A stretch of DNA of 62,446 bases, the filler included, from Stramenopiles sp. TOSAG23-6 (Eukaryota): assembly GCA_900128565.1 (NCBI GenBank). It is 13 parts of 13 records of this genome, joined end to end, with 100 filler letters (N's around TTAATTAATTAA, not from the genome) between each part and the next. Parts side by side here need not be neighbours in the genome. Positions count along the whole stretch, not along the records: positions 28,937 to 33,650 come from LT637076.1; 12 more parts are not named here. One strand, 5' to 3'. Under the pieces are notes generated by a model. It did no database searches, was not told the DNA's origin, and saw only the letters and a list, made by a program, of their open reading frames with translations. The position numbers and the translations under genes were made by a program. Below are positions 100 through 59,667 of the stretch, piece by piece (the stretch's first letter is position 1; each line of letters begins with the position of its first letter).

Positions 100-571
100 A
101 TGGAAATTGTTCATCTTCAGTATCGACAACGGATCCATTTTTGCAATTCATGATATAAAGTGAATCAATATTGTCAGTAGACGATGATCGTACACATATA
201 TTGAAAAAAATATGTCAAATGTAAATATTATTATTGTTAGGTACAAAATTTCCTACAAAAAAAAAAAAAAAATTATAAAAATGTCCAAAAAAAATATAAA
301 ATATAAATTAGAAATTGAAATGATGAAAACGTACATTTGATACGTTGATTGCAATATGGTCCACCCCATCCAGACTCACACAAACATGAACATTGTTTAG
401 CATATCCTATAGGCTTTCCATGAATACCACAATTAATTACACCCGCATCAATTTCATTTTGATTGCCTGTAGAATTATCACCTGCATTTGGTTCTGTACA
501 TATTTTTGGGGAACAAATTTCTGCATCATTTAAAAATTGACCAATATCACATTTAATTGTTGTGGGTATAC
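100..571 (-). CDS. EGF-like cysteine-rich protein, internal exons 571-335 and 195-100 (partial)
   Basis: Hand translation gives CIPTTIKC...NCGIHGKPIGYAKQCSCLCESGWGGPYCNQRIK|CVRSS..., with an EGF CxCxxGWxGxxC motif. The frame is kept across intron 334-196 (GTACGT...AATATAT). Confidence 0.65.
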
Positions 572-3409: not shown

Positions 3410-4729
3410 ATGAAAATGAAGTTGTCATCATTTCAAGTTTTCCTGACTATTGCGTTGTTTATATCTGTGAACGCTGAGCCTGAGAAAACGACAGACGTTA
3501 ATTCTGGGTCAAAAGATGAAGAAAACAAGAAACCTTCTGATTCTAGTTCTTCTACTTCGTGTTATTCGCTGTCCGAAACATCGTGTAATCAGAATTCTGC
3601 CTGTAGGTGGAATGCGAAGGGTATGACTCAAGAGGAGAAGAAAGCTTGGGAAGATAAGAACGATAAACGTCGTTTGGAAAAGTGTCCTGAGAAAACGACT
3701 GAAGAAATTATAAAAGAAATCGACCAAATGATGGAGGAAGATTGTGGAAAAGAAATAAAAACATGTCGCGAGGATGTGTCGTGTAAGGACCAGCTTTTTG
3801 CACAAGTGAAAAATTGTACACCTCCAGACTGTTCAAACGGATCTTGCAAACCTCTTATTCTAGCTGTTGTACAATGCTACCAGAAGTTAGCTAGTTCACC
3901 AGCAGGATCGGGAGCTTGTGAACAGGATAAATGTAAAAGCAAGACGTGTAACGTCAGTGATTGTTGGCCTTTTAATGAATTTGATTCAAATTGTGCCAGA
4001 GAAGGAAATATTATTCCTTGCCGAGATTGTGTATCCTCAGGTCAATCGTGTCATAACGTTTCTGCGTGTTCTGACTCAATGATGACTTGTAAAAATATAC
4101 CTTCTACTGAAAATTTAACGCATCCATGTAAAGAACCTGCTTGTGATGCAAATCGAAAAGGCCCCGTTTGTAAACAAAAAGTTTTTGATTTTTGTAAGAA
4201 GGGAAGCGGAACATCATGTACGTTGTCATCATGAATTTTAATTTTTTTTTTCGTACGCAATTTTGTACCTAACGATTTTTTTTACACCAAAAAAAATATA
4301 TATATTTTCTCACAATACATGTTCTCCAACTGGTTGTAATGCATTTATGAGCAAAAATACATTTGACTACAATAATGTTAAATGCCCATTCAAGGATGCA
4401 AGTCAAACATGTGAAAAAAAAGAGTGTCAAGCATACAAACATAATCTATTTGAATCTTTCGGGTCCAAAGAATGCCGAGGTGGTTCAGGATGTATTTATG
4501 ATATGGTACTTCAACTTGCTGATCAGACTCGAAGATCGCGGCGGTATTTAAGACGCCTTGTTGATTCGTCATCTGATCCGTCTATGACGAGTGGTGAGAA
4601 AGAAAGTAAACAAACTGGTGATGGTGATCCGTCTATGACTAGCGAGAAGGAACAACAATCTGATGATAACGGACCCCCCGAATGTATCAAGTCATGCTTC
4701 GTTGGCCTTCAAAAGGAACCTGACTGCGA
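3410..4729 (+). CDS. Secreted cysteine-rich protein (exons 3410-4217 and 4321->4729; truncated by contig end)
   Basis: Signal peptide MKMKLSSFQVFLTIALFISVNA and many Cys. Removing intron 4218-4320 (GTACGT...AATACAT) gives GTS|CSPTGCN in frame. Confidence 0.7.
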
Positions 4730-7578: not shown

Positions 7579-8245
7579 CTACGTACTATGTAATTCATTC
7601 AATTCATTGGAAATATAATCAAAAGCTTCCTCAACAGTCATTTCTCTATTTTTCATGTTTTTCGTGTTTTTCGTCTTTTTCGTCTTTTTCGTCTTTTTCG
7701 TCTTTTTTGTGTTAGGGTTAGGGTTTAAATCATAAAACACATCTAACCACCAGTGTCTTCCTATCAATGGATGTTTTTGAATATTAATCATATAATTATT
7801 TTCACTTAACCCACAAATAGTATTCCAAACATATACACTGTACAAAAATATTTTGAAAAAAAATTTGGTTAGGTACAAAATTTCGTATGAAAAAATATCT
7901 TGATGAAAAAAATATATTTTGAAAAAAAAAAAATCTTTTTTTTTGTTAGGTATACAATTTCGTACGAAACCAAAAAAAAAAAAAACATACATGATTCGCA
8001 ATACGACATGTTTTGAAATATACAATTTTCATTTGGTGTTTGAAGTTTTGCTCTTTGTAGCAAAGATGCTAATAAAATCCATAAATATTCGCATTCCAAT
8101 TTGTTTGTTGATGTGTTATAATTGTTATTTGTACTATATTTCATATTTGATACTCTTTGCATTGGATGAATAACCAGTTCAATACATGTTTTTGAAAAAA
8201 TATTTCAAAAAAAAAAAAAATTCGTTAGGTACAAAATTTACTATG

Positions 8246-8280
<35 letters not shown>

Positions 8281-8339
8281 AAATTTAAATTTAAATTTAA
8301 AAAATTGAAAAAAAAAAAAAATTTTTTAGGAAAAAAATT

Positions 8340-8377
<38 letters not shown>

Positions 8378-9470
8378 TAAAATGTTAATTTTTTTTTTTT
8401 TTAAATTCATAAAAAATTTCATACAAAATTCATACACAAAAAAAACGTACGATCGGCTACAATTGATATTCCTAAATGTATTGGAACGTCACCAGTGATA
8501 CTGAATTCAACTAATTGTTTGAATGGTTTAATAGCCAATGGATCAAATTGTAACCACGAAAAAAGACAAAAAATATTTCTATTTTTTTGGTATTTTTTTG
8601 TTAGGGTTAGGGTTTTCAAAATTGAATTTTTGTCAGACTTTTTATAATTTTCTCCATTTGTATTTTTCATATATACCTCAATATCATTTGCATACGAATC
8701 TAAATATGTATGAATTGTTTGGATACTAGAATTTTGTTCCGATGTTGTTTGAGATAAAATTGATATTTTGTGAAAAAATATTCAAAAAAAAATCTAAAAA
8801 AAATTGTTAGGTACAAAATTTCCTACAAAAAAATATTTAAAAAAAAAAAATTCTACATTTAAAAAAAAAACCTACATTCATCGCAGTTGTCAAGAAACCA
8901 ATCCAATATTTTCAATATTTTCAATTCTACTTGAATTTCATTTGTAGTCATTTTTGATTGATTTGTGACTTTAGTTGTATAACGATGAATAAATGTATGG
9001 AAAGAAATCATTTCAATATTATGTGATACAAAAATATATTTCAAAAATGTATAATTTTTGTTAGGTATGAAATTTTGTACGAAAAAAAAAAATTCAAAAA
9101 TATTTTAAAAATTTTTAAAATTCCTTCAATATAAAACATACCAAAATTGATACCAATTGGTTTTCATTGATATTTGATTGTTTCATTACTTCTGTTATTT
9201 CAGTGCAAATATTTTCATGTAATTGAGATAAAGATAGTTCCCGGTACTCTTGACTAGAAGAATTCATATTTTGAATAAAATCATTTTTTGATTTTTTTGA
9301 TTTTTTTGACTTTTTTATATTTGTAGGGTTTCTTTTAGGGTTAGGGTTATTTTGAATAGAATTATTTTTTAATTTTTTTATATTTTGATACATTTGATGA
9401 ATATTTTGAATAGATATTCTTTCATACAAGACATCACTGCATTGATCTTGGATGGTTGATACTATACTGT
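7579..9470 (-). CDS. Multi-exon hypothetical protein (3' part)
   Basis: ORF fragments 9115..9555, 8859..9044, 8419..8670, 7869..8162 and 7579..8025 join in frame if family introns are removed at AT acceptors (e.g. IL|NIEM, AD-R-IELVIHP). Confidence 0.5.
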
Positions 9471-9920: not shown

Positions 9921-12286
9921 AATCATATGTGCAACTGCACATCATGGAATATTTAGATGGAAATCTTTGTGATTTGAAAGGAGAAAAGTCACCACAGAGA
10001 GAAAATAGATCATTACAAGATCGACACGTCATGTACGTTGTTTTTTTAATTTTTTTTTCCAAATTTTTTTCATACGAAATTTTGTACCTAAGGATTTTTT
10101 TAAGATTTTTTTTTAGATTTTTTTTTCCAAATTTTTTTTCATACGAAATTTTGTACCTTACAAATTTTAAAACTTTTTTTTCAAATTTCAAATTTTTTTT
10201 TCAAATGTATATTCATTATTATTTCAAAGCCAAAGAAAGCCAAAGAAAGCCTGATAAAACCTGATAAAACCTGATAAAACCTACTAAAACAAATCAAATT
10301 TGATATATTTTCACAACAATACATTCGTATATTATTAGATATTTCAAAAGGTGTCTTTCAATTACACAAATTTGGATTAGTCCACTCTGATTTAAAACAA
10401 GTTAATATTCTGTATAAAAATTTGAATGTATATGATTTAGTCGAAAAAATACGAAAACAAACGAAACAAACACGAATAAAGAACAAAAGGAACAAAAGGA
10501 ACAAAAATAAGTCTAATTTTGACGATGCTCTAAATGATATTGATTTTTATTCAGATCTTGTGTCGAGTTCTAGACTCGCGAAAGATCGCGAAAACAATGA
10601 AAAGATTTTACAAAGGAAAAAAGCATATGTATGTTTTATTTTTTTTCAATTTTTTATCTAACAATTTTTTTTTTTCGTACGAAATTTTGTACCTAACAAA
10701 AATTTTTAGATTTTTTTTGAAATATTTTTCCAAAATACATGCTGTTGCAATGTATGAAGCCGAGATACGAAACGGTCATCCAGAAATTAAAGAAGCTGTA
10801 GGTTTCCATTTTTTTTCATAGTAAATTTTGTACCTAACATTTTTTTTTTTTTAAAAAAAATACTAAAATAATATATATATATATATATATATATTTGTAC
10901 AATATATGTCGACATTGCTGAATCTGTACGATTTCGTAGACAAGTGTTTGGAAAGGAAAGTCAAGAATTTGAAGAAGCTGAGGACGAAGCGATAAGTGCA
11001 TATAATAAATATAAATTTCCAATCATTGTTAAATTAGGAGATTTTGGATGTACTGCAGAAATTGGTCGACGAAGAAAATGTTATTCACCACGTGTATCTT
11101 TTCAAAATTCAACTTTTTTTATTTATTTCAATTATGAATTTTTTTTTTTTTCGAATTTTTTTAGTCATTTTTTTGGTAATATTGTAATATAGAGATTTCT
11201 ACTACTATATGAACTATGTGTTTCATTATATACCTAACAAACCTAACAAACCTAACAAACCTAACAAACCTAACAAACAACTATCAAATTTATACAATAT
11301 TGTAATACAAATTATACATTTCCACCAAAAGAAGTCCATTATAAAACATTTGGAACAAATATCAATCCAAAATTACATACAAAAGATGATGTTTTTTCAG
11401 TAGGTATACTCGCAATGATTTTGTCTCGTTGGGATATTGATTGTAGTAATAACAATGAAGAAATGATGAAAGCAGGAACATTTTTGAGAACACAATTTCG
11501 TAATGAAATCTTTCCATCTGCAGATAGAATTGTTAATTTTTATTTAGGTGATGAACCTACACGTTTTATGAGTCAGTCTTGTACGTTTTTATTTTATATG
11601 ATTTTTTTTTTCGTACGAAATTTTGTACCTAACGAATTTTTTTTTGAAATATTTTTATTATTTTTATTATTATTATTATTTTCATATCTAACAAAATAAA
11701 ACATTTAAATATTTTTATTAACAATACAGTACTTGCTTTACTAAAAACAAAAGTGTTAGTGCCAAGACAAGAAAGAGTTGAAATTGATGTTTTATACAAG
11801 TTATTCTCAAAGTATTTACAACAGCAAGATACTCAACTAATGGGGCTAAAACAACGTGGGTCGTCTCCTCCTATACCAATTGGAAAAAAGCTTCCAGGAG
11901 GAAACTCACATTGGAACAGATCAAGAAACAAATTGATAAACAAAAGAGGTGGAGGAAGACATTTTGATGACCGTCAAAATTATTTTCAACCAATACGAGA
12001 AAGAGAAGGACAACGTCCAAGAAGAGAAAGACAACAAGAAGTGAATCATTTTCAACCAATAAGAGAGAATGAAACTAAAAGCACTAAAAGCACTAAATAT
12101 CCTAAAAAACGTTCAAAATGGTTTCAAAATCCCGGACCACTTGACACTCAAAGTGATTATTCTGTAAATTCACCACATCCACGACAACAAGGGAGATATG
12201 CACGAATACCTAATGAAGCAGGACAACCACAAAATGATACAAATTCAATTGTGTCGACATTTTGTTCATTATTTGGAATTTGCTAA
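9921..12286 (+). CDS. Ser/Thr protein kinase, multi-exon (5' partial)
   Basis: IMEYLDGNL hinge, LVHSDLKQVNIL catalytic loop, VKLGDFG, PPKE (APE-like) and DVFSVG. Introns 10033-10324, 10629-10740, 10798-10907, ~11094-11315 (boundary uncertain) and 11581-11729. Confidence 0.85.
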
Positions 12287-15318: not shown

Positions 15319-16799
15319 TTATAATTGTAATGCTTCTTTCACTTGATCCATAGTCTCAGTAGCCATTCCTCTAGCTTCTAATGCACCTTTTTGAAGAATT
15401 TCATCAAGATGTGTTTGATCATTTATTTACTGTGAATTTTGTATGTAGTAAAAAAACTGTTAGGTACAAAATTTACTACGAAAAAAAAAACTTTAAAAAA
15501 TTTAAAAAAAAAATATTTTTTTTTGTTAGGTACAAAATTTACTACGAAAAAAAAAACTTTAAAAAAGTCAAAGAAACATTATGAAAACGGACAATCTTTT
15601 CTTAATTTCATTTCCAATAGGAACAATACGTTCAACAACAACTTCTGTCAATTCTTTTTTTAAACGCTGCATTCTATGTATTTTGGAAAAATATTTCAAA
15701 AAATTTTTTTACCAAAAAAAAAAAAAAATTTGTTAGGTACAAAATTTACTATGAAAAATCACCATTTTCTAGGTATTTAATGACAGATTGAACATCCATC
15801 CCAGTTAGACCAGCATAAATTCCTGTATTGTAAAAAAAAAAAAAAAAAAAAAAATGCTTTAGGTACAACATTTTCTATGAAAAAAAAAAAAATTTTAAAA
15901 AAAAAAAAAAAATACCTATTAAATTGGATACCAGGGCGTTGGATTGGATCCCATGTTAAAGGTCCTTGTATTGCATCTGTTTTTGCTTTTTTAATTTTTT
16001 TTTCTATTAAATCAGCCGAGTCTGTCAAATCAATACGACTAAATGTAGACAAGTCTGATTTTGACATTTTTTTTAGACCATCACGTAAAGAAGACACTCG
16101 ATGTGTCGTTGTATTTTCAACTATTTTGACTTTTTTATTTTTTTCTTCATTTTCATTTTCTTTGTTTGTATCATTTGAAATTTTTACATTTTTATTTTCC
16201 TCTTGTATTCCAACTAATGTTTGAGGTAACACAAATACTTCTTTATCAACATAATAGTTAAATCGACTGGCAATTTCTCTACATAGTTCAATATGTTGGC
16301 ATTGGTCATCTCCTACAGGGACAACAGTGGCTTGATATAATAAAATGTCAGCTGCTTGGAGTACTGGGTATGCATATAATCCTAATGGCGACATGGATCT
16401 ATCTTTCCCACTCTTTTGCTTAAACTGTGTCATTCGATTTAAGTGACTCATCTGTGTAAAACAACTGAGAATCCAAGATAATTCAGAGTGCTCTGGTACG
16501 TCAGACTGTACGAATAAAGTACTCTTTTCGGGATCTATACCACACGCAAGTAATGCTGCAGCAGTAGAACGAGACCGAGAACGTAAACCACCATCATTAT
16601 AAGTAGTACTTATAAATGATGTAATTGCATGAAGATCGACAACGCAGTATAATACACTGTCATACATGGGATCGTGCTGTCGAGATTCCCAATTGACTAA
16701 AGCTCCAAGATAATTTCCTAAATGAGGACAATGCCCCGTAGGTTGTATTCCGGAAAATATTCGTTGACGGGTTGCCATAGCTGTCGCACGTCCAATCAT
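15319..16799 (-). CDS. WARS2: Organellar (bacterial-type) tryptophanyl-tRNA synthetase, 4 exons
   Basis: IFSGIQPTG, HLGNYLGA (HIGH), DLHAIT, YPVLQAADILLY, VPVGDDQ, KMSKS. Downstream exons GIYAGLTG, AAFKKELTEVV and NDQTHLDEILQKGA...ALQL*. Apparent frameshift near 15930. Confidence 0.93.
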
Positions 16800-28936: not shown

Positions 28937-31900
28937 TACTTGACGGCTAACTCTCCAATATGCCTTGATATTCTTTCTCTGATAGCTACATTCGACAATG
29001 ATGATAAGAGCACCATCTCTCGAAACACCCGTATTACTCAAACTCGCGTAATCAACGCGCTTCTCACCCTTAATGACAGCGACACAAAAAACGTGATTAA
29101 GCTATATGCGAAACCAAAAAGCACAGAATACAAAATGCGCAATGGAATGATGCGGCAATGTTCTTCTAATTGGCGAATTCTTGAGGATGAAAAATACGTA
29201 TCGGATGCGCTTGCATATCATGTTTCCTTACTGTATCTTCTGGGTACATGTTGTAACGCTCTTCCAAACACCCCAGAAGTGCAACTACGAACACTGTTAC
29301 CATTAGATTATGCAATTACAGCATTTCGATACCATTTGGAATGTCAGACTAGCATTGATCCACTTTATATATCATTGTTATTTTTGCACTAACGCAACAT
29401 TGCCAAATCTTGATCGATTATATCGATCAGAAGTAATTTTGCTGCTTCAGCATTTCATTGATATATTACAGAAATGTCATGAACATGGGAACATCGAATC
29501 TTTTGTATTATTGAAGCGAAAGAATAAACTAAACATAGAAAATATCAGATGGCTTTGCGGAAGAGAAACGGTTCGAAAATTAAAAAAGTCGGAAGATGTA
29601 GTGCTGTATGTATACCACTATGTCCTTCCGTGTTTATTACAACTATTTGAGCGGTATCATGAAAGTTGTATAGATATGTGCTGGGAGACACACACGCGCT
29701 CAGCGGTGATAAGTAACAAAAACATGCCGCGTAGAGATACAGATAATGTCAGTTGCTTCACTTCTGTTGTGCAGAAAGCTAACTGCTTTTCTTTCAAGCA
29801 TATGCTCGAAACGCTTCTTCAACTACGTTGCGATGCATCACAATTTCCACAGCTTGAATTTCTCATCACTGCAGTCAGTAATACAGGATTAAGTGTAATG
29901 ATGAGAGCAGGTATCAACGTAGGAATCGCATCTCCAAAAACATCTAGACCAAATAACAATACCGGGAAACAAACATTAAAGTCAAAGTATGATGAAAAAA
30001 AGCATGCTACTACGGAGCAGTCTTTCTTGAAAGAATCGAAATTGCTCGAACAAAAGTTGACCGACAAGTCTTTAATTCGCCCTATTCATATTATCCAAGT
30101 AATTAAGAAATCTTTAGATGTAAAGAAATTACACGAAAAGGAATTTATAAGACTCGTGGCAAAGATTTGGTCATTTGAGACCAATCATACATCTTCAATG
30201 AGTCGACAACAAATATTAAAAAGTATTGTTACACACGCTCTGCGCGAAGTTTCTGTGATTGATACATTTATATCTTCATTTAATCTTTGCGACCGTGTAT
30301 GCAAAAATGAAATGAAAATCAATAGGATAGATGACGTAGGAGAAGAACGGGTAGTCCGTGTTCTACGAATTCTAAAACTATTTGTGCTTTTTGCTAAGGA
30401 GGGACGCTGTAAAGTTGAAAATGAAAGTACAAACTTAGAAAACTTAGAAATATCTGAATATATTGTACAGAATGCACAATACCAACTTTTATACGTTCAA
30501 GTAATGGATTTGATATTGAAGCTTGTAAGTCATAACATATCTGGTGCTACATTATTAGCGACACTTAAACTCGGTATAGTTATCATCGAAGGATTGAATG
30601 GACATCCTAATATAAAGTCTCAGGCGTATGCATTTCATATATTGAATAAGAAAGATTCCGATGTTATATTTACGGGATTTCAATTTCATTTACGTGAATG
30701 TTGTGAATTGATTATACATAAGTCAAGTCGAGCAAATCAGTCTAGGTTATTTATCAAGGATTCAAAATTATCCAGTGTGAAGGATATGTATATAGTGAAA
30801 GAGAAGGCTTCATTTAGCCACGAAGTATTGCACTCAATTCTACACTTTTTGCATCTACTTTGTGCAGAGCAGTATCGACCAAACCAAACTCTTATGTGTG
30901 ATCAAGTTAGCAACAATGGAGAGAAATATAATTTAATTTCTTCACTTGTTAGCGTGTACAATGTTTTTACATTGCAGTTCCAAGAGGATGACGAGCTCGA
31001 CGTAAAGTTAATTGGTAATTTGGCTGATATTTCTCGGGCTATATGCTCAATTTGCGAAGGATCTTTTGCAAAAAATCAAAGGGTTTTGCTGTTAGAAACA
31101 AACTTCATTGGAATTTGCAACAGACTAAATAAAAAATGTCGAGCTTATCGAACAGGAATGATGAAAAGATTACAATTAAAACTTAAAATGACAAATGTGG
31201 TAGGACTCTCAACACTTGAAAAAATGGAAAAAGAAAGGACATGGGAAGATGACGAGATTTTATTGGGTCTAGAACACATTGGTGTGAAAATAATGCTTGT
31301 AATTACCAATGAAAATAAAGATGCCGCTATACAAGGAAGGATTGCATCTCAATATAAATTTCGTGTATTATTGTCACGCTTGTGTGACATACTTCAACAA
31401 ACTAGCAATGATATTAATTGCATACATTCGAGAAATTAAATCGAAGTCATGGTTTGAAGAGTTATTAAACGACACAAATACAGCAGATGGATTAACGCAT
31501 TCCAGAAGAGAACTTTTGGATTCTGTTGATTGGTTTGAAAATCGAATATCTAATGTCGAAGTTCTTTGGAATGGTAAGATTATACGAATATTTTTTCGCA
31601 CACCTCCACTGTATTCCTTCGTGATGCAATCTTCACTAGAACAATTTATTATTGATGTAAATCGAGTGAGCACAGAGACTAAACTTACGGCTCTAACAAA
31701 AGAGTTTAAGCATTTGTTATTTGAGATGAAACACCAACTGTGGCTTACAGAAGTACGGTTGAATTTACTATTTTCGGATTCTTATATACATTGGGCTCGT
31801 AATTTGTCTCTGCTGACATCCTTATGCGTTACGATGCTTCTGATTACATTCTATACTAGCGAGGAAACAACATTATCATCAGAATCTCCAACACTAAAAG

Positions 31901-32931: not shown

Positions 32932-33125
32932 CTCAATCTTGAGTTTATAATTTAATAAAGCAATGTAATGTAATGTCACAAGAATCAAATTCATAATATT
33001 ATATAGAGTTTCTACATTATTTATGCACAATTTTATTTTTTAATGTTTTTTCGTTAGGCATGAAATTTTTAGGAAAATAAATAAATTCCAAATCAATGAA
33101 GAAAAAGAATTCTATTTGCCCCGAC

Positions 33126-33650
33126 TTAAGATCTTAAAAAGTCCATAAATGCATCCTTGTTCTGAACAGGAGTAGTCTTAGGTCTACCAAGATCAGGTCG
33201 AGCACCAGTAAGTACTCGAGCTTCAAGAAGGGCTGGTCCTTCGCAGTCTCTGAGTCTGTGAACGGCTTCTTTCACCTCCGCTTCAGTCGTTGCTGTGAAA
33301 ACATTTTTGTATTTGCAAGCTGTAGCTAATCCAGAAATGTCAACATTTCCCATTTCGGATATTTGCCCACCAACACTTTCGTGGCATCCATTATTAATGA
33401 TGACATGTTTGAAATTCTTCGGTTGGCGGGAGCCAACTGTAACTAATGATCCCATGTATTGTGAAAAAACACAAAATCACAAAAAAACATTGTTAGGTAC
33501 GAAATTTCGTATGAAAAAAAAATTAAATTTGAAATTGAAAAGAAACATACATGTGCATCTGAAGTGCACCGTCACCTTCTAGAACATAAACGTCTCGGCT
33601 TGGTTTAGCCATTGCAATACCAAGACCTATAGCCGAAGAATGCCCCATAG
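33126..33650 (-). CDS. aepY: Phosphonopyruvate decarboxylase (TPP enzyme), 3' exons
   Basis: MGHSSAIGLGIA, EGDGALQMH|MGSL, NNGCHESVGGQ and DLGRPKTTP..NK..FM.FL are characteristic of Ppd. Intron 33550-33454. Confidence 0.88.
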
Positions 33651-37659: not shown

Positions 37660-38373
37660 TTACCCAAGACCTGCACAGTCGTCAGAATCATCAGAGGAAA
37701 AATCAAATGTTTTTTTAGTACCAGTAACATTATTGACCTGTTCCGGTGGCTTCGGAGGAGAGACAATATCTGTTTTTTCAGACAATTTAGGGTTAGGGTT
37801 CGAGAATGACTTTGAAGAAGCGTTAACAATACTACTACTACTACTACTACTACTATTTGTTTTACCAGCTGATGATATGGACGAAATACTTGACACATTC
37901 ATTTTCATTTTCAGAGCTAGTCGAGTAATTTGTGGATCTAAACGATGAAATTTTCTTGAATTCTGCAATTCTTCCAGCAGTGACACATTATTATCAAGAA
38001 ATGCTTGGACGAGAGTCTCTTCTGTTGCACACATTTCATCATGAATATACGTTGGGTGTTGAAAGTGGACATTGTCAAGCGCAGCTTTAGCAGCCACTGC
38101 ATCTCCACATGTATTGTGAAAAAATATGCCTACAGTTCGAAATTCGTTAGGTATGAAATTTTCTTAACAAAAAAATAAATTCGAAATTCATGATGAAAAA
38201 CATACAGGCACAGTATAAAATCGCTATAGATAGAAAATTTCGAAAGCGTTGTGTTTCAAGTCCCCTAGTGAAGTGCAACTGATCGAGTTGAAGCAAAAGA
38301 TTCAATGCATCTCTATAGCGTTCAGATTTGACTAACGCTTCAATACATTGGCGAAAGGCCGACTCACCACTGG
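37660..38373 (-). CDS. NAPG: Gamma-SNAP-like protein, 3' exons (38373-38206 and 38108-37660)
   Basis: FLSIAILYCA|CGDAVAAKAAL, LVQAFLDNN, F.RLDPQITRLA and an acidic C-terminus. Confidence 0.65.
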
Positions 38374-38627: not shown

Positions 38628-40719
38628 CATTTACGTACCATTGAACCGGAGAGGGAAGCCAATGGAAGACTTTTGATAAATACAGAAAGAGAGAAAAAAC
38701 TCATGTAGTTTGCATCATTCATTTTTTTTTTTTTTTTTTTTTAAATTTTGTACCTAAAAAAAATCAAACTTTTGCATCATTCATTATTTTTTTTTTTTGA
38801 AAATTTTGTACCTAAAAAAAATCAAACTTGATATATCGTCCAAAAATACATGTATGTAATAGGTTCAGCAACAGATTTCCCCTCTCAATTTAAAAATAAT
38901 GACAGATTATCAACACTTTCAATACAAAGTAATACAAAAAATATACAAAGTGTGGAAGACACGAAAATCAATAGATTAGCTAGAATTAAAACAAAATTAG
39001 GAAAAAATATTACAAATAAGGAACAAACTCGAAATTTGTTAGGTATGAAATTTGGTACGAATACTTCGAAATCGAACCCTAACCCTAATCATGGTGAAAC
39101 AGATTTTGTTTCAATGCAATATCAAAGTCAAACTCCATTTAGTTTCACTCGATTTCAGTATATGTATATTTTTTTTCTTAGAAATTTTTATATATGATTT
39201 TTTCATACGAAATTTTGTACCTAATAAATATTTTTTTGATATTTTTTCACAATAAATGTTGGACTCAAAAGTACCTGAAGGCTTGGTACGTATGAAAGGA
39301 ATAATATGGATTGAATCAATTTCAGATACGGAGGAACTTTTTAAGAAAAAAATGTTACCTACGACATTTGGTACGAAATTTGCTACAAAATTTGGTAGTA
39401 AACACAAAAGTGACAATCTCAATAAAAAACTGACATTTCGTGGTCAAAGGTACATATTTCAAAGTAATGGTAGTGGTAGCAGGCGACGATTTGAGATAGT
39501 AGAAGATGGAAGTTGGGTAACGACACCAGAAACAAAATTAATGTACTTTTTCATCATTAATATTTTACTTACATTTTGTTTTGTATGAAATTCTGTACCT
39601 AACGATTTTTTTTATTAATTTCAAAAAAAAAAAAACAATATTTTTTCTCATTACATTTGTATTGGACATCGCACTGGATTGGGTTGTCTTGATTGTCAAG
39701 AAATGACACGAAATCTTCAGCGTTGCTGTTATGAAACATTTGATGACTTAGACTGTGTTCAAAAAGTAAAAAAAATACAAAAAATAGAAAAAGTACAAAA
39801 AGTAAAAAAAATAGAAAAAGTAAAAAAAGTAAAAAAAATAGAAAAAGTACAGAAAAACTGTGACGTAGATTGCTTGGCATCTACTTGCGATCATAATCAC
39901 AATCATAACCACAATCATAACCACAATCATAATCACAATCATAACCACAATCATATCCACAATCATAACCACAATCATAACCACAATGAAAAGCAAGTCA
40001 CTCGAAATCATGAGACTCAATATAATAATAATGAAAAAAAAACTCATCAAAAATTGAATGAAAATTTAAATAATATTCAAAAATCTTTATTTTATGATTT
40101 CACGGAGTGGATGAAATATGATGGTAAATTTTCTGTTTTATATTATGCAAGAAATGTAAAGGATGATGATCACGTATTTCGTTTTCGAATATCAGCATAT
40201 CAAAAAACAGGTTTGTCTGTGAGTGATCTCTATGTTAAATATGGAATTAATATGAATAGAGCTCAACTCGAATTTGCAAGACGAGTACGTTTTCAATTTC
40301 GAATTTCGATTTTTTTTTGGTACGAAATTTTGTACCTAACAATTTTTTTTTGAAAATATTTTCCAAAATACATGTGAACAGTTCAAAATCTCCATTACTC
40401 ATTATCACTGTACAATCAGATATTATAGATCCTGTTGAAAAAAATCATTTCTCTACATTTCAATCTAAAAATGAAAATTTTATTGACTGCGCTTTTGTAC
40501 CATGTATGTTTTAATTTTTTTAAAATTCGAATATTTTTTTCGTACGAAATTTTGTACCTAACAAATGTAAGTTTTTTTTTTGAAATATTTTTCCAAAATA
40601 CATTGATATTGGAAAAAGTAAGAAGCATTCAAAAAGTTCAAGAATGTCTTTCATACCATGCTAATATAGTGCTGAAAGAAATTCTTCGCAAAATTCCTGA
40701 TTGCGTGTGTGGACAATAG
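38628..40719 (+). CDS. CobW/COG0523-type metallochaperone C-terminal region with (HN)n tract, multi-exon (5' partial)
   Basis: CobW_C motifs FVSM.Y....PFS, LVRMKGIIWI, RYIFQ, W...PETKL|ICIG and a His-rich tract at 39891-39987. Introns 39164-39257, 39543-39656, 40285-40373 and 40504-40603 all end in AT. Confidence 0.78.
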
Positions 40720-42460: not shown

Positions 42461-43066
42461 ACTCTCTAGGAATTCCGTGATGACCACTCCAAGTACTACC
42501 CTCTGTACGTCCTATTCGTTTTCCTTCCCGTTCTGGAATATTTCCACCTTCATGAATTATGAAAAAATATTTCAAAAAAAATCGTTAGGTACAAAATTTC
42601 GTATGAAAAAAAATAAATTCGAAATATAAAAAAAAGTAAAACATACTGCCTTCCAAATTCGTTCTTTTGTCATATTTTCATCATTAAAATCGGTAACTGG
42701 TGTCCAACAGAATTGATTATCCTTTAAATCTCTTAATTCACTACAAACTGCTTGCTCAGGACAAGGCTGGATGAGTTCCATGGCACCGTAGGATTCAGAT
42801 GTGTTTTGGAAAAGTATTTCAAAAAAAACTCGTTAGGTGCAAACTTTCGTACGAAAAAAAAAACAAATTTGAAAAAAAATCAAACATACATTTATAACAA
42901 CCCAGTTTTGTCCAATTTGTAATTTCTGGACCCGATTGACTCATAGAATGAATTGCCATATTACACCACTCATAATCTAAAATATGTTCTTTTGTAGAAA
43001 ACCAAACGGAATTGCAGATTTCATTTCTATCTGAAATACCACTTCGAATCTTTTTCAACACAAAGA
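42461..43066 (-). CDS. Hypothetical protein, last three exons
   Basis: Exons join in frame via GT-AT introns: GCYK|SESYGAM and IWKA|EGGNIPER...*. Confidence 0.55.
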
Positions 43067-43359: not shown

Positions 43360-46300
43360 CACAGCAATGAAATTTCTTCATTGGTTCATTACTTCCATAT
43401 TTATATCAATGTTGATTTAATTTTCCTAATTTTTGCGTTGTTTTTTTATTTTTCCCAATTTTGCATGCATTATTTTTTTATTTTTCCCAATTTTTATATT
43501 GTTTTTTTATTTTTCCCAATTTTTGTATTGTTTTTTTATTTTTCCCAATTTTTATATTGTTTTTTTATTAGTAGTAGTAGTATCATTATTATTATTATTA
43601 TTAATAGTAGTATTATCATTATTATTATTATTATTATTAGTAGTAGTATTTATAATATCATTATGTTTTCTCGTTACAGTTGAATCATTCTTACTATAAT
43701 ATTCTTTTGTTGTCGGAGGTTTTGGAAGTAATAATTGTAATGAGTTAATTGTAATAATATCATTTTTACTATTTTCGATATTATCCTTTTTTAACCCTAA
43801 CCCTATCGTAGATGATGAAGAAATAGTATTGTTTTTTGACCCTATTATAGAAGAACAAGATAATGTATTTACTTTCGGAACTAATGGAGGTTTTTTAAAG
43901 TTTGGAGATGTCGGAGATGTCGGAGATGTTCCAAAAAAAATATTTTCAAAATTTTTTTCTTCTGTTGATGCTGAACACTCAATATTATTCTGTACACACC
44001 CTAACCCTAATCTTTTTGGTTTGGACGAGTTTTGTGTATGTATGGTAGATGTATTGTCTGTCGTATCAAGATTTGAAATATTTAAAATTTCATTTTCATT
44101 TTCATCACTAGGGTTAGGGTTAGGGTTAGGGTTCTCTTCCCCATCATTTTCATCATTTGTGAACCATTTAGAAGGTAATCTATTCCGAGATACTTGACTT
44201 TTTGTTTTTTCAGGTTTTCGTGTCATTGAAAGTATGTTATCTGTATGCACAGGCCATATGTGTAGTAATTGTTGACTAGCTTCGGTAATAGTAATCCATA
44301 ATAAATGCCATAATTTGTTAATAGAAAACACATTAATACTGTTTCGTATTTTTTCTATATTTCGTGTTTTTTCTATATTGGTGTTTGTTGTCGTTTGATC
44401 TACAAATGTATTATTATTAGTATTATTATTATTATTAGTAGTAGTAGTATTATTATTAGTATTATTATTAGTATTATTAGTAGTAGTATTAGTAGTATTT
44501 CGTGTAGTCATACTATTTGGAAGAGTCACAACAGAAACAGAATGAGACATACTATTTGGAAGAGTCACAACAGAAACAGAATGAGATGTCTTCATAGATT
44601 GCTCAAATGGATTATTTTGGCTAGGGTTAGGGTTATTCGTCCATTTTGTTTTTTTCTCATCATTTTTTGAATGTTGTAATAAAATGGTACAGTTTTTTTT
44701 CATTTCATTAATTTCAAACAATATTTGAGATTGTTTTGTCTCTATTTCTAATTGTAACATTGATAAGTTCTTTTCAATAAAAATTGTTTGTCGACGCTTG
44801 AAAATATTTCGTGTTTTTTGATTTTTTCGTGTTTTTTGTTTTTTTTGATTTTTTTGTTTTTTTTGATTTTTTTGTTTTTTATTCTCATTTTCATTTTGTA
44901 TGCACTCATTTTGTACTATAACATTTGTGAAACTCATTAATTCATCATCAATACTACCATTACTCAGATCACTGATATCATCCTCGATACTACTTTTACT
45001 TGAAAATGACCTTTCACATGTATTGTAAAAAAAAATATTTTTGAAAATTTTGTTAGGTACAAAATTTTTATAAAAAAAAACCAAAAAAAAAAAAAAAAAA
45101 AAATTTGAAATTCATAATGAAAACATACTACTTTCTCTACTTAGTGATGAATTCTCAAAAAAGGTAGGGTTAGGGTTGACGTCACCATCACTGGTAGACA
45201 AAATAGATCCTTCACTATTTTCTCGAGATAATAACATAGGGTTAGGGTTGACGTCATCATGACTTGTAGTAGGGTTAGGGCGTGCAATAGATAGATCATT
45301 ATTTGTTCCATTAGGGTTATTAGGGTTAGGGCTAGGATGATGTTTTGGTGACGTCATAATTGTGAGAGACGACGATATTGATCGCGCTGTATTCTTGACT
45401 GTATCTACAGTTTTTTGTATACGATGTTTCATATTTTTCACATTTTTATGTTTTTCGTGTTTTTTTCGAGATTGGACTCGTTCAGTGCCATATAATGGCA
45501 TTGATTTACACAATTCAATGGCTTGATTGATTTTATATAATAATCGAGATGTTGTTGTATTTAATCTTGATTCAATAGTATCTAATTCAAAACAGATCCA
45601 TGTACATAAATTTGTTGATTCGTGATTGTACCACATATATTTCAAAAAAATATTTCAAAAAAAAAAAAAAAAAAATCGTTAGGTAAAAAATTTCCTATAA
45701 AAAACAAAAAAAAAAAAAATCGTTTTTTTTTTTTTTTTTTTTTTGTTTAAAAAAAATTTATAGGAAATTTTTTACCTAACGATTTTTTTTTTTTTTTTTT
45801 TGAAATATTTTTTTGAAATATATGTGGTACAATCACGAATCAACAAATTTATGTACATGGATCTGTTTTGAATTAGATACTATTGAATCAAGATTAAATA
45901 CAACAACATCTCGATTATTATATAAAATCAATCAAGCCATTGAATTGTGTAAATCAATGCCATTATATGGCACTGAACGAGTCCAATCTCGAAAAAAACA
46001 CGAAAAACATAAAAATGTGAAAAATATGAAACATCGTATACAAAAAACTGTAGATACAGTCAAGAATACAGCGCGATCAATATCGTCGTCTCTCACAATT
46101 ATGACGTCACCAAAACATCATCCTAGCCCTAACCCTAATAACCCTAATGGAACAAATAATGATCTATCTATTGCACGCCCTAACCCTACTACAAGTCATG
46201 ATGACGTCAACCCTAACCCTATGTTATTATCTCGAGAAAATAGTGAAGGATCTATTTTGTCTACCAGTGATGGTGACGTCAACCCTAACCCTACCTTTTT

Positions 46301-48059
46301 TGAGAATTCATCACTAAGTAGAGAAAGTAGTATGTTTTCATTATGAATTTCAAATTTTTTTTTTTTTTTTTTTTTGGTTTTTTTTTATAAAAATTTTGTA
46401 CCTAACAAAATTTTCAAAAATATTTTTTTTTACAATACATGTGAAAGGTCATTTTCAAGTAAAAGTAGTATCGAGGATGATATCAGTGATCTGAGTAATG
46501 GTAGTATTGATGATGAATTAATGAGTTTCACAAATGTTATAGTACAAAATGAGTGCATACAAAATGAAAATGAGAATAAAAAACAAAAAAATCAAAAAAA
46601 ACAAAAAAATCAAAAAAAACAAAAAACACGAAAAAATCAAAAAACACGAAATATTTTCAAGCGTCGACAAACAATTTTTATTGAAAAGAACTTATCAATG
46701 TTACAATTAGAAATAGAGACAAAACAATCTCAAATATTGTTTGAAATTAATGAAATGAAAAAAAACTGTACCATTTTATTACAACATTCAAAAAATGATG
46801 AGAAAAAAACAAAATGGACGAATAACCCTAACCCTAGCCAAAATAATCCATTTGAGCAATCTATGAAGACATCTCATTCTGTTTCTGTTGTGACTCTTCC
46901 AAATAGTATGACTACACGAAATACTACTAATACTACTACTAATAATACTAATAATAATACTAATAATAATACTACTACTACTAATAATAATAATAATACT
47001 AATAATAATACATTTGTAGATCAAACGACAACAAACACCAATATAGAAAAAACACGAAATATAGAAAAAATACGAAACAGTATTAATGTGTTTTCTATTA
47101 ACAAATTATGGCATTTATTATGGATTACTATTACCGAAGCTAGTCAACAATTACTACACATATGGCCTGTGCATACAGATAACATACTTTCAATGACACG
47201 AAAACCTGAAAAAACAAAAAGTCAAGTATCTCGGAATAGATTACCTTCTAAATGGTTCACAAATGATGAAAATGATGGGGAAGAGAACCCTAACCCTAAC
47301 CCTAACCCTAGTGATGAAAATGAAAATGAAATTTTAAATATTTCAAATCTTGATACGACAGACAATACATCTACCATACATACACAAAACTCGTCCAAAC
47401 CAAAAAGATTAGGGTTAGGGTGTGTACAGAATAATATTGAGTGTTCAGCATCAACAGAAGAAAAAAATTTTGAAAATATTTTTTTTGGAACATCTCCGAC
47501 ATCTCCGACATCTCCAAACTTTAAAAAACCTCCATTAGTTCCGAAAGTAAATACATTATCTTGTTCTTCTATAATAGGGTCAAAAAACAATACTATTTCT
47601 TCATCATCTACGATAGGGTTAGGGTTAAAAAAGGATAATATCGAAAATAGTAAAAATGATATTATTACAATTAACTCATTACAATTATTACTTCCAAAAC
47701 CTCCGACAACAAAAGAATATTATAGTAAGAATGATTCAACTGTAACGAGAAAACATAATGATATTATAAATACTACTACTAATAATAATAATAATAATAA
47801 TGATAATACTACTATTAATAATAATAATAATAATGATACTACTACTACTAATAAAAAAACAATATAAAAATTGGGAAAAATAAAAAAACAATACAAAAAT
47901 TGGGAAAAATAAAAAAACAATATAAAAATTGGGAAAAATAAAAAAATAATGCATGCAAAATTGGGAAAAATAAAAAAACAACGCAAAAATTAGGAAAATT
48001 AAATCAACATTGATATAAATATGGAAGTAATGAACCAATGAAGAAATTTCATTGCTGTG
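43360..48059. repeat. Whole-contig inverted duplication (centre ~45720) of an Asn/Thr-rich gene fragment
   Basis: ORFs 43552..45084/45112..45645 (-) mirror 46374..47867/45813..46346 (+); the arms differ by one 39-nt tandem unit and by homopolymer lengths. Confidence 0.95.
45824..47867 (+). CDS. Low-complexity Asn/Thr/Ser-rich protein, 3' exons (mirrored at 43552-45634)
   Basis: Two exons separated by a family intron (GTATGT ~46329 to AATACAT 46440). Confidence 0.55.
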
Positions 48060-48196: not shown

Positions 48197-49400
48197 CATC
48201 TTCTTTCAAAATGTCTAGTGTAAAATTGACAGCATAATTAGCTACTGATTGTTTTCCATAATATAATGCATTAAATTGTGGAAGACCAATTTGAAGGGCC
48301 ACAGCCCAAAATGGAACATATCCAAGATATAATCCATTTTTAACACCAATATACATAAATGATGCAGCAACAATAATGCCAGGAGCTCTACATTTATTTT
48401 TAAAAAATATTTCAAAATGTTGAAATTTGTTAGTCATTTCGTATAAAAAAAAATTGAAAAAAAAATTGAAAAAAAAAATGAAAAAAAAAATTGAAAAAAA
48501 AAATTGAAAAAAAAAATGAAAAAAAAAAATGAAAAAAAAAAAATGAAAAAAAACAATGATTTTAAAAACATACACCAAGTATTAAGATTTGCAGACCATC
48601 TTTTTTCTTGACGTCGACCAAATAATTCACATTTGACTAAACCTAAAAGAAAATAATCCAAACCACCTGGTAATCCACTAATAAAAAATGCTTGCCAATT
48701 CCCAAGAGCTCCAAAATGAAATATTTGTCCAGGTAAGCCAAGGGTTGGAATAAATAAAAAATGATGAAAATAATCTGCTGAATTTAAACCAAAACCTCAT
48801 AAAAAGTAAATTATATATTGTAATACTAAATAGAAACAAATAAATACATTTGGTTGATATAATAATATATATAGTATTGAGATACATGTAATATATTCAA
48901 AATACCAACCATATGATACAGATGAACACTATTTACAATAGTCAGTGGCCAAATTGATTTTTTGAGTACAATATATTACATTCGAAATTGGTTAAAAAAA
49001 TATTGTTAGGTTAGGTACGAAATTTTGTAGGAAAAATAAACACACAATGCATAGATAAAATATAATAGTTTTCTTTCAAATAAACATGTAAAATACATCC
49101 ATTGCCAAACATTGATCGGTCTGAATTAACACTTCCACTCAAAGCATTCACTGGGTCATTTAATATACTACTCATTGAACTCATGGCAGTGAGACAGACA
49201 AGAAGATTTGCAAAAGCATGAACGAAAAACCATCTTCCATTTGACTGATCACGGCTCTTTTTTACGTGACGTTTCACGAATGGTTTTACAATGATGTGGT
49301 CTACAAATAAAAGCAACGCAATCACAGCAATGTTATTTCTTAAATGTTGTAAAAGATAAGTGACTGTCATTGGTTGCTTGAGTGATGCATTCCACGACAT
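48197..49400 (-). CDS. TLC (TRAM/LAG1/CLN8)-like multi-pass membrane protein, multi-exon
   Basis: RWFFVHAFAN, HLYHM, GLPGGLDYFLLGLVK and LNTW|CRAPG (intron 48573-48392 ends in AAT). Confidence 0.7.
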
Positions 49401-49798: not shown

Positions 49799-50408
49799 TT
49801 ACTTTTTAGATAAATCTGTAAAAGTAATAATTGAACCATTCGATAGCCCAGATTCACTCAATGACGTCATACATGCTTCAGGTGAATCACCAAGAATCTG
49901 TTTATTATTTTCATTAGAATTTGTTGATGTTTCTTCCAAAACAGTTTTATCAGTGATATTGACTTTACTATAACATTGTGGTACAAAAGATGCGATAATA
50001 TTTGTAGTTTGGCCGTTTTTCGTGTTGGGGACAATTCCTAAATTGACTGCACAATTTCTCAACACTTCACCAATTGTACAAGAATTATTGTATGACATGT
50101 TTAATAGTATTTTACTATTTTCTTTTTTTACAATAAGTTGAATCTCATTATTATTATTATTATCAATAGTATTATCAATAGTATTATTAATATTATCAAT
50201 AGTATTATTAATATTATCAATAGTATTATTATCAATAGTATCATTATTATTATCAATAGTATCATTATTATTATCAGTATTATCATTACTATCATTATTA
50301 TTATCAATATTATCATCAATATTATCATTATTATTATCAATAGTATCATTCAAAGTGTTTTTAGTATTACCGAGAGGTTTTCTAAAAACAGCACGAACAA
50401 AAACTCTA
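49799..50408 (-). CDS. Terminal exon with Asn/Asp-rich repeats and ubiquitin-like C-terminus
   Basis: (DNN)n tract; TIGEVL...SLSESGLSNGSII resembles the end of a Ubl/UBX fold. Confidence 0.45.
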
Positions 50409-50486
50409 TTTGCAGTTTTTTTTGTTAGGTACAAAATTTCGTATGAAAAAATTAATAAATTTGAAATTCATGATGAAACAACATAC

Positions 50487-52856: not shown

Positions 52857-53052
52857 NNNNNNNNNNNNNNNNNNNNNNNNNNNNNNNNNNNNNNNNNNNN
52901 TTAATTAATTAANNNNNNNNNNNNNNNNNNNNNNNNNNNNNNNNNNNNNNNNNNNNTTTGGAAAAATATTTCAAAAAATCTAAAAAAAATTGTTAGGTAC
53001 AAAATTTCGTATGAAAAAAAAATTTGAAATTGAAAACAAAAATAAAACATAC

Positions 53053-54277: not shown

Positions 54278-55208
54278 ATGTCATGGATAAATAAGATGAA
54301 GAGCATGATTCATTATCTGCCATTATCTAAAAGAAAGGTTGGATTTCTTCTTTTTGTCTTACTTATTATATTCATTCTTCGATGGCAAGAGAAAGCTGCA
54401 GCATTGAGAGGAACACGACGTAAGCCTTTATCGAAGTTTAGTGACAAATCTCTCCGCTTACTTTATCTACTCATAATCGCTTCCCCTGCATTATCATTTG
54501 CTCCCAAAATTACTCTTCTTTTTCTTATACCGTATGCGTTTACATTTATTGATGGTTCCGAGAAAAAACTCGGCCGCACAAAATCATGGTACAGCAAGTG
54601 GCAAAGAAATATGCCATTTTTTGCATGGCTATCACGAAGACTCAATTTAAAATTAGTTAGTACGTCAAAGATAGACAAATCAAAGTCTCATATTTTGTGT
54701 CTCCATCCTCATGGAATTTTACCACTTGGTGGAATGGGTAATTTGTTTACTGACTTTTCAAATGTAAAGGAAGTTCTTCAAGGTTTGGAATACCATGCTT
54801 TAGCTGCGTCATTTTGCTTTTACATGCCTGGAATTCGTGATATATATTTGGCTGGTGGAGTTGTTGATGCGTCCCGATATGTTGCTCAGGGTGTATTAGC
54901 TTCTGGGAAATCGCTTGTTCTTGTTCCTGGTGGAGCTTCAGAAGCTCTTTATTCAAAACCAGGTGTACGTTTTTATCATCAATTTTTAATTGTTTTTTGT
55001 ATGAAATTCCGTATTAATATCAAACATTTGTTTTAACAAATTTCAAAAAAAAAAAAAAATATTTTTAACAATATATGCTTCTACTTTAGTATTAAAGAAA
55101 CGATTTGGATTTATTACGTTGGCCATGGAAACGGGCGCTTCACTTGTCCCAGTGTATTCCTTTGGTGAGACGGATACGTATGATACCATTTCTGATACGG
55201 GTGCTTAT
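54278..55208 (+). CDS. DGAT2: Diacylglycerol acyltransferase 2 family (3' partial; mirror copy 55401-56331 -)
   Basis: HPHG, F..PG.RD, VPGGASEAL..KPG|ASTLVLKKRFGF and GASLVPVYSFGE. Intron 54965-55076. Confidence 0.92.
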
Positions 55209-58602: not shown

Positions 58603-59667
58603 CTAGTCTTCTTGTAGATTTACCCATCTCAATACTCGCATTAACTCTTGAATACGATCGACATTGTCAACCATTTGTTGACATACACGTATTATGAAAA
58701 AATATTTCAAAAAAAAATTCGTTAGGTACAAAATTTCGTATGAAAACAAAATTAAATTAGAAATTCATATAAAACATACACTATCAAGAACTGTGGCTTT
58801 ATGCCATGGACAAGGTGGATTTTGACCTCTTAACCATTGTAATATTTCTAAATGACCATGCATAGCTGCCATACTACACAGAGCGCCATTCCATGGGCAT
58901 GGAGGATTTTGGCTTCTTAACCATTGTAACATAAGAAGATTGCCTTTCATCACAGATACAAAGCAGGTATTTCGATCCCATGGACAAGGTGGATTTTGAT
59001 TTCTTAACCATTGTAATACTTCTAAATTACCACTACGAGCTGCATTGGTACACACTCTTTCACTCCAGGGGCACGGTGGATTTTGAGTTCTTAACCATCG
59101 TAACATTTCTAAGTTACCACTCAGAGCGGCATAATTACATGCATCTTCATCCCATGGGCAAGGCGGATTTTGACTTCTTAACCATCGTAATGTTTCAAAT
59201 TTGTTATCCAATGCTGCTATACGACATGCATCTGCATTCCATGGACAAGGTGGATCTTGGCTTCTTAACCACAGTAATATTTCAAAGTTACCACTCCCAA
59301 TTGCTTCGGTACACACACTCTCATCCCACGGACATGGCGGTGTTTGACTTCTTACCCATTTTAATACTTCTAACTGACCCTTTTCAGCTGCATACGTACA
59401 TGATTCACCCCACGGGCAAGGTGGTTTCCGACTTCTTAACCATTTTAAAAAGTCCAAGTCACCTTCCTCAGATGCTTTACAACACGTCACTCTACCCCAA
59501 TCAGCACCCACCAACCAAGGCCGTTGCGAATCATTTGAAACAACTCTACCTGAGAGTCTGTCTTTTAGACATAAATAGCTGGTAATTATAACTGCTGGAC
59601 CTAGCCCACTTAGTACCAGTTGTAGAACCTCTTCTTCGTGCTTTGTTCGCTTTCGTTGTAAAGACAT
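58603..59667 (-). CDS. Ankyrin-like 'WLRSQNPPCPW' repeat protein, 2 exons
   Basis: About 9 repeats of C..AA..G.LE.L.WLR.QNPPCPW. Intron 58779-58687 extends the CDS to a stop at 58603. Confidence 0.85.

Follow-up and report, generated by a model that had tools for sequence, protein, structure and literature searches.

U2-type introns almost always end in AG, usually the first AG after the branch site, and this 3' AG is among the most invariant expression signals of eukaryotes. A 62,446-nucleotide (nt) stretch of the genome of Stramenopiles sp. TOSAG23-6 (assembly GCA_900128565.1), referred to here in its entirety as the window, raises the question of whether introns that begin with GT and end in AT can be the rule. 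An earlier note, made from the sequence alone, had held that such GT-AT introns dominate in the window and had taken a 97-nt segment of the gene for phosphonopyruvate decarboxylase (Ppd) as the clearest case. Here, we report that the introns are copies of one repeated, introner-like element, which the earlier note had not noticed, and that the copy in Ppd is removed exactly from polyA RNA. We consider it likely that the copies are genuine introns belonging to one introner-like element family and that their RNA is cut at /GT...AT/ (slashes mark the cuts).

Ppd is encoded on the minus strand and runs into a contig end. Its upstream exon (33551..33650), truncated at that end, matches positions 222-253 of the NCBIfam model TIGR03297 (phosphonopyruvate decarboxylase), and its last exon, which includes the stop codon (33126..33453), matches positions 255-360. 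Once the 97 nt between them (33454..33550, GTATGT...ATACAT) are removed, the alignment is gapless, and the split Met codon corresponds to position 254. On the Pfam model TPP_enzyme_C, the first exon covers positions 30-61 and residue 3 of the second exon falls on position 65. The junction reads GAA GGT GAC GGT GCA CTT CAG ATG CAC AT/GTATGTTTC...CACAATACAT/G GGA TCA TTA. The intron, one copy of the repeated element, starts with the 5' splice-site hexamer GTATGT (33545..33550) and ends with the terminal box CACAATACAT (33454..33463), the last letters of which are AT. Between these ends lie a 14-nt palindrome of the element core, TACGAAATTTCGTA (33498..33511), predicted to form a small hairpin that appears in the minimum free energy (MFE) structure of four of six folded introns, and the sequence CTAAC within TACCTAACA (33492..33496), which stands 40 nt before the 3' end and may serve as the branch motif. 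AG is absent throughout 33550..33454, and the claim that the next two AGs give the wrong frame extends to a third, since those at +11, +17, and +37 are all out of phase.

Transcript data confirm that this 97-nt segment is removed as an intron. The runs that contain its contig (28937-33650, LT637076.1) are marine metagenomes and metatranscriptomes; we compared the contig with three RNA runs, which leave most of it uncovered, and with one DNA run (X1), which contains 0.86 of its words. All RNA evidence reported here comes from this contig. In the polyA metatranscriptome X13, one assembled contig (174 nt, depth 3.3) joins 33356-33452 to 33550-33626, with 77 letters on the shorter side of the joint, and skips 97 nt, placed at 33453-33549 within an ambiguity that takes in 33454-33550. 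Contigs from X13 and X8 lie on the last exon. Transcript mapping, which had been suggested as a check, finds the predicted segment skipped exactly, for one intron. Reads with AG where the assembly has AT had been named as one observation that would overturn the proposal, and X1 lists no difference at the AT end of the intron. X1 contains no joint at this site; its contigs 32972-33482 and 33525-33650 enter the intron from both ends, and it shares with the X13 RNA contig a G>A variant at 33384. Its depth reaches 16,646 over the intron core versus ~6.5 in the flanks, which indicates that the core is highly repeated in the X1 sample. Short RNA contigs from X8 and X9 at 33473-33549 fall inside this multi-copy element and are uninformative on retention at the Ppd locus.

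The element is ~90-120 nt long and is present in unrelated genes, including Ppd, DGAT2, TrpRS, a kinase-like gene, and others. Its core, TACGAAATTTYGTACCTAACA, occurs 40 times in 62 kb with up to three mismatches (0.00 expected), and 19 copies align to the consensus ATGTATGTTTT..AATTTCnAATTT..TTTTCGTACGAAATTTTGTACCTAACAAATTTTTTTTTGAAATATTTTTTCACAATACATG, also given as ATGTATGTTTT...CGTACGAAATTTTGTACCTAACA...GAAATATTTTTTCACAATACATG. Since it carries GTAYGT, the branch-like motif TACCTAAC, U-tracts, and a YAT 3' end, we regard it as an introner-like family. Its copies make up nearly all recognizable introns in the contigs of the window, and each intron thus received its AT end together with the element instead of evolving it separately. 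Copies adjoining open reading frames (ORFs) are in sense orientation, and few are unassigned (39037, 40743, and 19171). The core lies within ~70 nt of 13 of the 26 contig ends, which shows that the assembly breaks at the repeat. Ends of the form ATGTAT.../...ATACAT and a central palindrome can be recognized, the foldback score stands out from shuffled sequences, no more than 10 of 200 of which attain it, in six of 20 cases, and the element is possibly derived from a miniature inverted-repeat transposable element (MITE). Exact core patterns had no match in metagenome or viral contig collections, which hence supplied no extra copies or empty sites.

A census of the window yielded 29 candidate introns with both ends inside it, mirror copies in palindromic contigs being counted once. 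Candidates were scored as in phase when the cut joined the longest upstream and downstream frames, which happens by chance in ~1/3 of cases. When cut at the element ends, 25 of 29 keep the frame: 22 as GT..AT and three as GT..AG, with four fitting neither. In other genes as well, reading frame and homology are continuous across the element ends. The proposed dominance of GT-AT introns holds, and so does the AT majority, although the earlier tally of about 20 AT-ending introns against two AG-ending ones is replaced by 22, three, and four others. AG is missing altogether from nine of the 22 GT..AT introns and, downstream of the last CTRAY, from 15 of them. When in-phase AG alternatives were examined for 19 of them, 14 had no in-phase open AG within +45 nt.

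The 22 GT..AT introns share a consistent set of signals. Their 5' hexamers are GTATGT (10), GTACGT (6), GTAGGT (2), and others (4), and their 3' tetramers are ACAT (12), ATAT (4), AAAT (3), GTAT (2), and TCAT (1). The base at -3 is C in 13, T in six, A in three, and G in none, a ranking that matches the one for YAG. In 21 of 22, a CTRAY motif, in most cases TACCTAAC, precedes the 3' end by 34-71 nt and is followed by T-runs. The upstream exon ends in T (exon position -1) in 16 and in AT in 12, and G occupies exon position +1 in 15. The pattern (C)AT/GT...CAT/G thus mirrors the canonical (C)AG/GT...CAG/G with T replacing G. These figures agree with the earlier description of upstream exons mostly ending in AT or T, a GTAYGT donor, a CTAAC branch-like motif, and a U-rich tract. 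Among the features expected of U2-type introns, a GT start (22 of 22) and CTRAY upstream of T-runs are present, and the 3' AG is replaced by AT in 22 of the 29 candidates.

The main rival to removal by the major spliceosome concerns the machinery and leaves the termini unaffected: the same GT..AT introns might be removed by a minor, U12-type-like spliceosome with co-evolved small nuclear RNAs (snRNAs), as in Physarum, a possibility we regard as unlikely. The branch motif of U12-type introns typically lies 10-20 nt from the 3' end. The minor machinery is known to tolerate 3' ends other than AG; the available text of PMC1557818 reports that it can splice GT-AT introns and lists seven U12-type examples. 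The 5' and branch motifs of the element are long and highly conserved, and many copies have a TTTGA box ~20 nt from the 3' end. However, the conservation is accounted for by one element having been copied recently, the donor reads GTAYGT and not RTATCCTT (positions +5/+6 are GT, not CC), and TACCTAAC stands at 34-71 nt from the 3' end, where a U12-type intron would have TCCTTRAY close to that end. Together with the strong U-tracts, the donor and the distant CTAAC are more in keeping with a major than with a minor spliceosome.

A second rival accepts the introns and shifts their ends. The true termini would be AT..AC (ATGTAYGT...ATAC), and GT..AT would be an artefact of the junction repeats, which are at least 2 nt long in 19 of 22 introns (0.18 by chance). 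A...C terminal pairs are a known functional combination, the AT..AC register is allowed by the focal intron and six others, and upstream exons ending in AT (12 of 22) would suit it. We nevertheless consider it very improbable, because 15 of the 22 in-frame introns do not permit it, whereas GT..AT fits all 22. The G of GT is invariant in the alignment and the preceding AT is not, and ATGTAY is not an AT-AC type 5' consensus. AG-ending copies are also cut at the GT..AT position: in two of them the G aligns with the T of ACAT, and the copy at 11581-11729 ends in ATACAG, its G standing in the alignment column of the T of ATACAT, so that the cut falls on one and the same place of the element whether a copy ends in AG or in AT. 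The earlier note likewise favoured GT-AT, while allowing an AT-AC register for many introns.

Individual introns illustrate the range of registers. The DGAT2 intron (54965..55076, plus strand; mirror copy at 55533-55644, minus strand) allows no AT..AC register; on Pfam DAGAT, its upstream exon ends at position 159 and residue 2 of the downstream exon falls on 161, with no gap, and the GT..AT product aligns without gaps to seven homologues. The intron at 40285..40373 (plus strand; cga/GTACGT..ATACAT/gtg) has neither an AG nor an AT..AC register and is in phase 0 on both sides, between 222 and 46 codons. GT..AT is the sole register of the intron at 9021..9141 (minus strand), which lacks a junction repeat and is placed by frame with an acceptor chosen post hoc. 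For 42552..42646 (minus strand, by frame), the possible registers are GT..AT and TA..TG only, and for 58683..58775 (minus strand, by frame), which has a long junction repeat, GT..AT is one of nine.

The proposal that there is no splicing at all appears still less probable. In that case, the copies would be plain MITE insertions, polymorphic or eliminated from the DNA like the internal eliminated sequences (IESs) of ciliates, and the interrupted genes would be pseudogenes or artefacts. The RNA and DNA runs come from different samples, and the assembly has indels and palindromic chimeras, both of which would suit this proposal. However, X1 DNA carries the intron ends and no empty site, contrary to what is expected of an IES, and the X13 RNA contig shares its G>A variant at 33384. 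Frame is kept in 25 of 29 copies versus ~1/3 by chance, the copies beside ORFs are in sense orientation with few unassigned, and standard stop codons are in use, as judged from long ORFs under table 11. It is just as hard to credit spliceosome-independent excision guided by pairing of the intron ends, as proposed for the non-conventional introns of euglenids and hemistasiid diplonemids (described in the available parts of PMC12621601 and PMC11282704), because, although 5' GUAU can pair with AUAC at -6..-3 to leave a 2-nt AU overhang and does so in the MFE structure of two of six folded introns, this pairing spans 3-4 bp and is lost in copies ending in ATAAAT or ATATAT, only one of the six folds is clearly below shuffles (z-scores -0.27, -1.36, -0.01, -1.16, -4.38, and -0.39), and the GTAYGT, CTAAC, and U-tract signals are strong.

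We propose that splicing of the element may work as follows. Each copy would bring its own signals into the gene: GTAYGT at the 5' end, a small palindrome followed by TACCTAAC as the likely branch site, U-rich tracts, and a conserved 3' box ...CAMAATACAT. A cut at /GT...AT/ would remove exactly the inserted unit and restore the reading frame. The spliceosome presumably does the cutting, the motifs fitting its major U2-type form better than the minor one, and the last base of the intron would be U in place of G. The 3' site would be chosen through an extended motif, the distance, or the exon context, rather than as the first AU after the branch. Of 21 introns, none uses the first AT downstream of the branch motif and two use the first YAT, and 1-17 AT decoys lie between the branch motif and the site used. 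AU alone therefore cannot define the 3' site, and a mere swap of AG for AU combined with first-site scanning fails. The earlier suggestion of a spliceosome re-tuned to accept AU is in this respect too simple. As a whole, the earlier interpretation is partly supported. In a broader scenario, for which we see roughly even chances, a free-living marine stramenopile lineage, MAST-3-like, would have replaced nearly all of its introns with thousands of ~100-nt copies of the element, and its major spliceosome would carry out the second step at YAU in place of YAG, finding the site through the extended 3' box or distance and not by scanning for the first one.

Several points weigh against the reading of the copies as introns cut at /GT...AT/, or against parts of its mechanism. 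Five letters at the X13 joint fit either side and allow six placements, GT..AT and AT..AC included, so that the RNA demonstrates removal and does not fix the register. RNA support consists of one contig of depth 3.3, from one metatranscriptome and for one intron, and since RNA and DNA were sampled separately, the RNA could formally stem from an allele that lacks the insertion. The register argument is based on reading frames, while the assembly has indels (8 nt and ~68 nt relative to X1, and a frame shift in TrpRS). Four candidates (673-572, 14026-14132, 49045-48813, and 15762-15676) fit neither GT..AT nor GT..AG, five of the 19 tested introns, the TLC and gamma-SNAP cases included, have in-phase open AG alternatives, and the acceptor of the intron 9141-9021 was picked after the fact. 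That the first AT downstream of the branch motif is always passed over leaves a key step of the mechanism without explanation. With regard to the origin of the element, terminal inverted repeat (TIR) and foldback signals are weak (above shuffles in 6 of 20), and the register of the junction repeats is not constant, so that a transposon mechanism of spread is plausible and not established. The junction repeats could reflect a short target-site duplication (TSD) or a protosplice-site preference.

Most of the remaining GT..AT introns are placed by frame. In the kinase gene, a 292-nt intron with two element cores (10033..10324, plus strand) precedes an exon that matches Pkinase positions 103-133 (E 3e-4, under the Pfam cut-off). 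The same strand carries element copies at 4218..4320, 10629..10740, and 40504..40603, an intron with a GTAGGT donor at 10798..10907, one with GTATAT...ATAAAT at 39164..39257, the "CobW" case (GTACTT...TTACAT) at 39543..39656, and an intron at 46330..46440, mirrored at 45018-45128 (minus strand) in a palindromic contig. The minus-strand introns are those at 196..334, 7833..7990 (two cores), 8186..8450 (265 nt), 8763..8875 (GTAGGT donor), and 42799..42889, together with the "gamma-SNAP" (38109..38205) and "TLC" (48392..48573, ending in ATAAAT) cases. The earlier note had claimed that the frame is kept in the CobW (39543-39656), kinase (10033-10324), gamma-SNAP (38205-38109), and DGAT2 (54965-55076) cases, and all four are indeed in phase. 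The TLC cut (48573-48392) likewise keeps the frame, while the argument that a nearby AG would give a stop fails, as the AG at +4 is out of phase and that at +6 is in phase and open. The gamma-SNAP intron has in-phase open AGs at -21, +6, +12, and +24, and frame alone does not exclude AG ends in these two introns. The names fared unevenly: DGAT2 is placed on Pfam DAGAT, CobW_C is matched only at E 0.049, and neither exon of the TLC and gamma-SNAP cases has a significant Pfam or NCBIfam match. A homology search with the 209-aa exon 39658-40284 gave no match.

Three introns end in AG. They are the element-derived 11581..11729 (plus strand; ATACAG, by frame and alignment), an element copy at 50382..50486 (minus strand, by frame) the 3' part of which has been replaced and ends in TTTTAG, and the first TrpRS intron (15823..15915, minus strand), which ends in ACAATACAG and is in phase only with a short, homologue-supported VSNLIG frame. 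The last TrpRS intron (15421..15588, minus strand, GTTTTC...ATAAAT) is GT..AT; the upstream in-frame AG would lead to a TAA stop, and the spacing is as in the homologue P0004. A frame shift occurs in TrpRS at ~15920-15940 (minus strand), between ...DPIQRPG and VSNLIGI, where homologues read through; it is either a 1-nt assembly indel or something unexplained. A scan of ORF pairs for introns unrelated to the element was too noisy to annotate, and the gaps inspected were intergenic or corresponded to one AG-less intron. This additional intron of the kinase-like gene (~11100-11300, plus strand), outside the census, is free of AG over the last 65 nt ahead of the next ORF and allows two frame-keeping GT..AT pairings (11176-11298 or 11184-11300). 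Five ACCTAACA units stand in a row at ~11230-11270, within an intron of the kinase-like gene.

Existing gene models bear on how these introns are annotated. The TrpRS ORF 15780-16886 (minus strand) equals P0001, a protein whose source name begins with GSMAST32, except for two gaps: P0001 is without 19 and 17 residues of this ORF, which is conserved and uninterrupted, and its end is the translation of a T-rich intron. A tblastn search with homologues located the true downstream TrpRS exons behind element introns. The DGAT2 ORF 54248-55250 (plus strand) is otherwise identical to P0121 of the same GSMAST32 series, which is without three junction residues. Both models force wrong GT-AG introns, and the GSMAST32 names suggest that the host is a MAST-3-like marine stramenopile. 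The available part of PMC5778133 reports, for single-cell genomes of MAST lineages, MAST-3 assemblies with very low gene counts, too few complete protein matches for gene-finder training, and apparently pseudogenized dynein genes. Unrecognized GT..AT introns could conceivably contribute to results of this sort in the group.

The 13 pieces of the window, 4,729 down to 4,694 nt each, are joined by N44-TTAATTAATTAA-N44 linkers starting at 4730, 9559, 14381, 19203, 24020, 28837, 33651, 38457, 43260, 48060, 52857, and 57653; judging from their descending size order, each is probably a complete contig, the assembly being fragmented. Their GC content is ~27-40%. Contigs 43360-48059 and 52957-57652 are perfect palindromes with the same sequence on both strands (for example, +46330/-45128, +54965/-55644, and +57557/-53052) and look like amplification chimeras. 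Relative to the window, X1 is longer by 8 nt behind 29327 and by ~68 nt at 31407 (~31406-31407), differences that would both restore one long IP3R/RyR-like ORF with RIH_assoc and Ion_trans domains; the frame breaks there are therefore assembly or strain indels and not introns. An Rfam scan of the window matched no family, and the window contains no snRNA or splicing-factor gene. A protein-atlas search yielded the CBF family. Telomere-like short runs (TTAGGG/CCCTAA, 2-4 units) occur inside contigs at ~44100, 39000-39120, 8650, 7650, 49600, and 59800, some of them adjoining genes. An ankyrin-like protein (58768-59688, minus strand) has a repeated PPCPW(D/N) motif, a type of repeat known from stramenopile, haptophyte, and giant-virus proteins, and a MYND-type zinc-finger-like ORF (59923-60705, minus strand) lies just upstream of it.

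If the broader scenario holds, recognition of the 3' splice site would have been re-engineered through changes in U2AF35, Prp8, Slu7, Prp18, or snRNAs, in co-evolution with the element. With approximately three quarters of recognizable introns ending in AU next to a textbook donor and branch motif, this organism would amount to a natural experiment on how the 3' splice site is read in the second catalytic step, and to a clear example of mutual adaptation between a spliceosome and a mobile element. In practice, gene finders restricted to GT-AG yield wrong proteins here (P0001 and P0121).

In the literature searched, supplements being outside the search, neither introns dominated by GT-AT nor, for MAST lineages, any non-canonical introns are described, and the available parts of PMC5778133 and 10.64898/2026.04.17.719054 make no mention of such introns. 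The comparisons that follow refer to the portions of the cited works that were available. Rare mammalian GT-AT introns have the same terminal dinucleotides, with U2-type (DGCR2) and U12-type examples, and are single cases among hundreds of thousands of introns (PMC1557818), compared with 22 of 29 candidates here. The U12-type expansion in Physarum polycephalum also involved mass intron gain, transposon-like ends, and some GT-AT introns; however, GT-AT accounts there for 17% of the non-canonical introns, themselves 0.8% of the total, and the motifs are RTATCTT and a TTTGA 10-12 nt from the 3' end (10.1101/2020.10.12.336362). Introns of the euglenid and diplonemid type are marked by extensive pairing of their ends and no polypyrimidine tract, whereas here only one of six folds is clearly more stable than its shuffles and U-tracts are present; a review (PMC11282704) also covers non-canonical introns of Polarella and euglenids.

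Further close parallels are found among mobile introns. The introners of Micromonas, Aureococcus, Polarella, and others are likewise near-identical short elements inserted in many unrelated genes, and introners elsewhere carry or create their own splice signals in hundreds to thousands of copies (PMC11282704 and PMC12130899). Unlike the element described here, they have canonical sites, and the curators in PMC12130899 accepted only AG or AC 3' ends as familiar. The intronic elements of Amoebophrya resemble it in that more than 60% of introns are non-canonical, in their multi-copy nature, and in their TSD/TIR features; their boundaries are variable and U1 snRNA is apparently absent (PMC7789003 and PMC11282704), whereas GTAYGT is strongly conserved here. 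In Fritillaria borealis, too, most introns are non-canonical, lineage-specific, and linked to repeats with TIR/TSD-like features; these introns are described as MITE-derived, and their removal is attributed to a major spliceosome that has adapted (PMC11282704). That organism is an animal, a tunicate, with very diverse termini that are mainly AG-AC and AG-AT (PMC11282704), while the introns of the window follow a single GT..AT rule with a yeast-like GTAYGT donor and a CTAAC motif in a stramenopile host. Transposon-derived non-canonical introns are already known, and an introner-like family spliced at GT..AT, as proposed here, would be a further variety of them.

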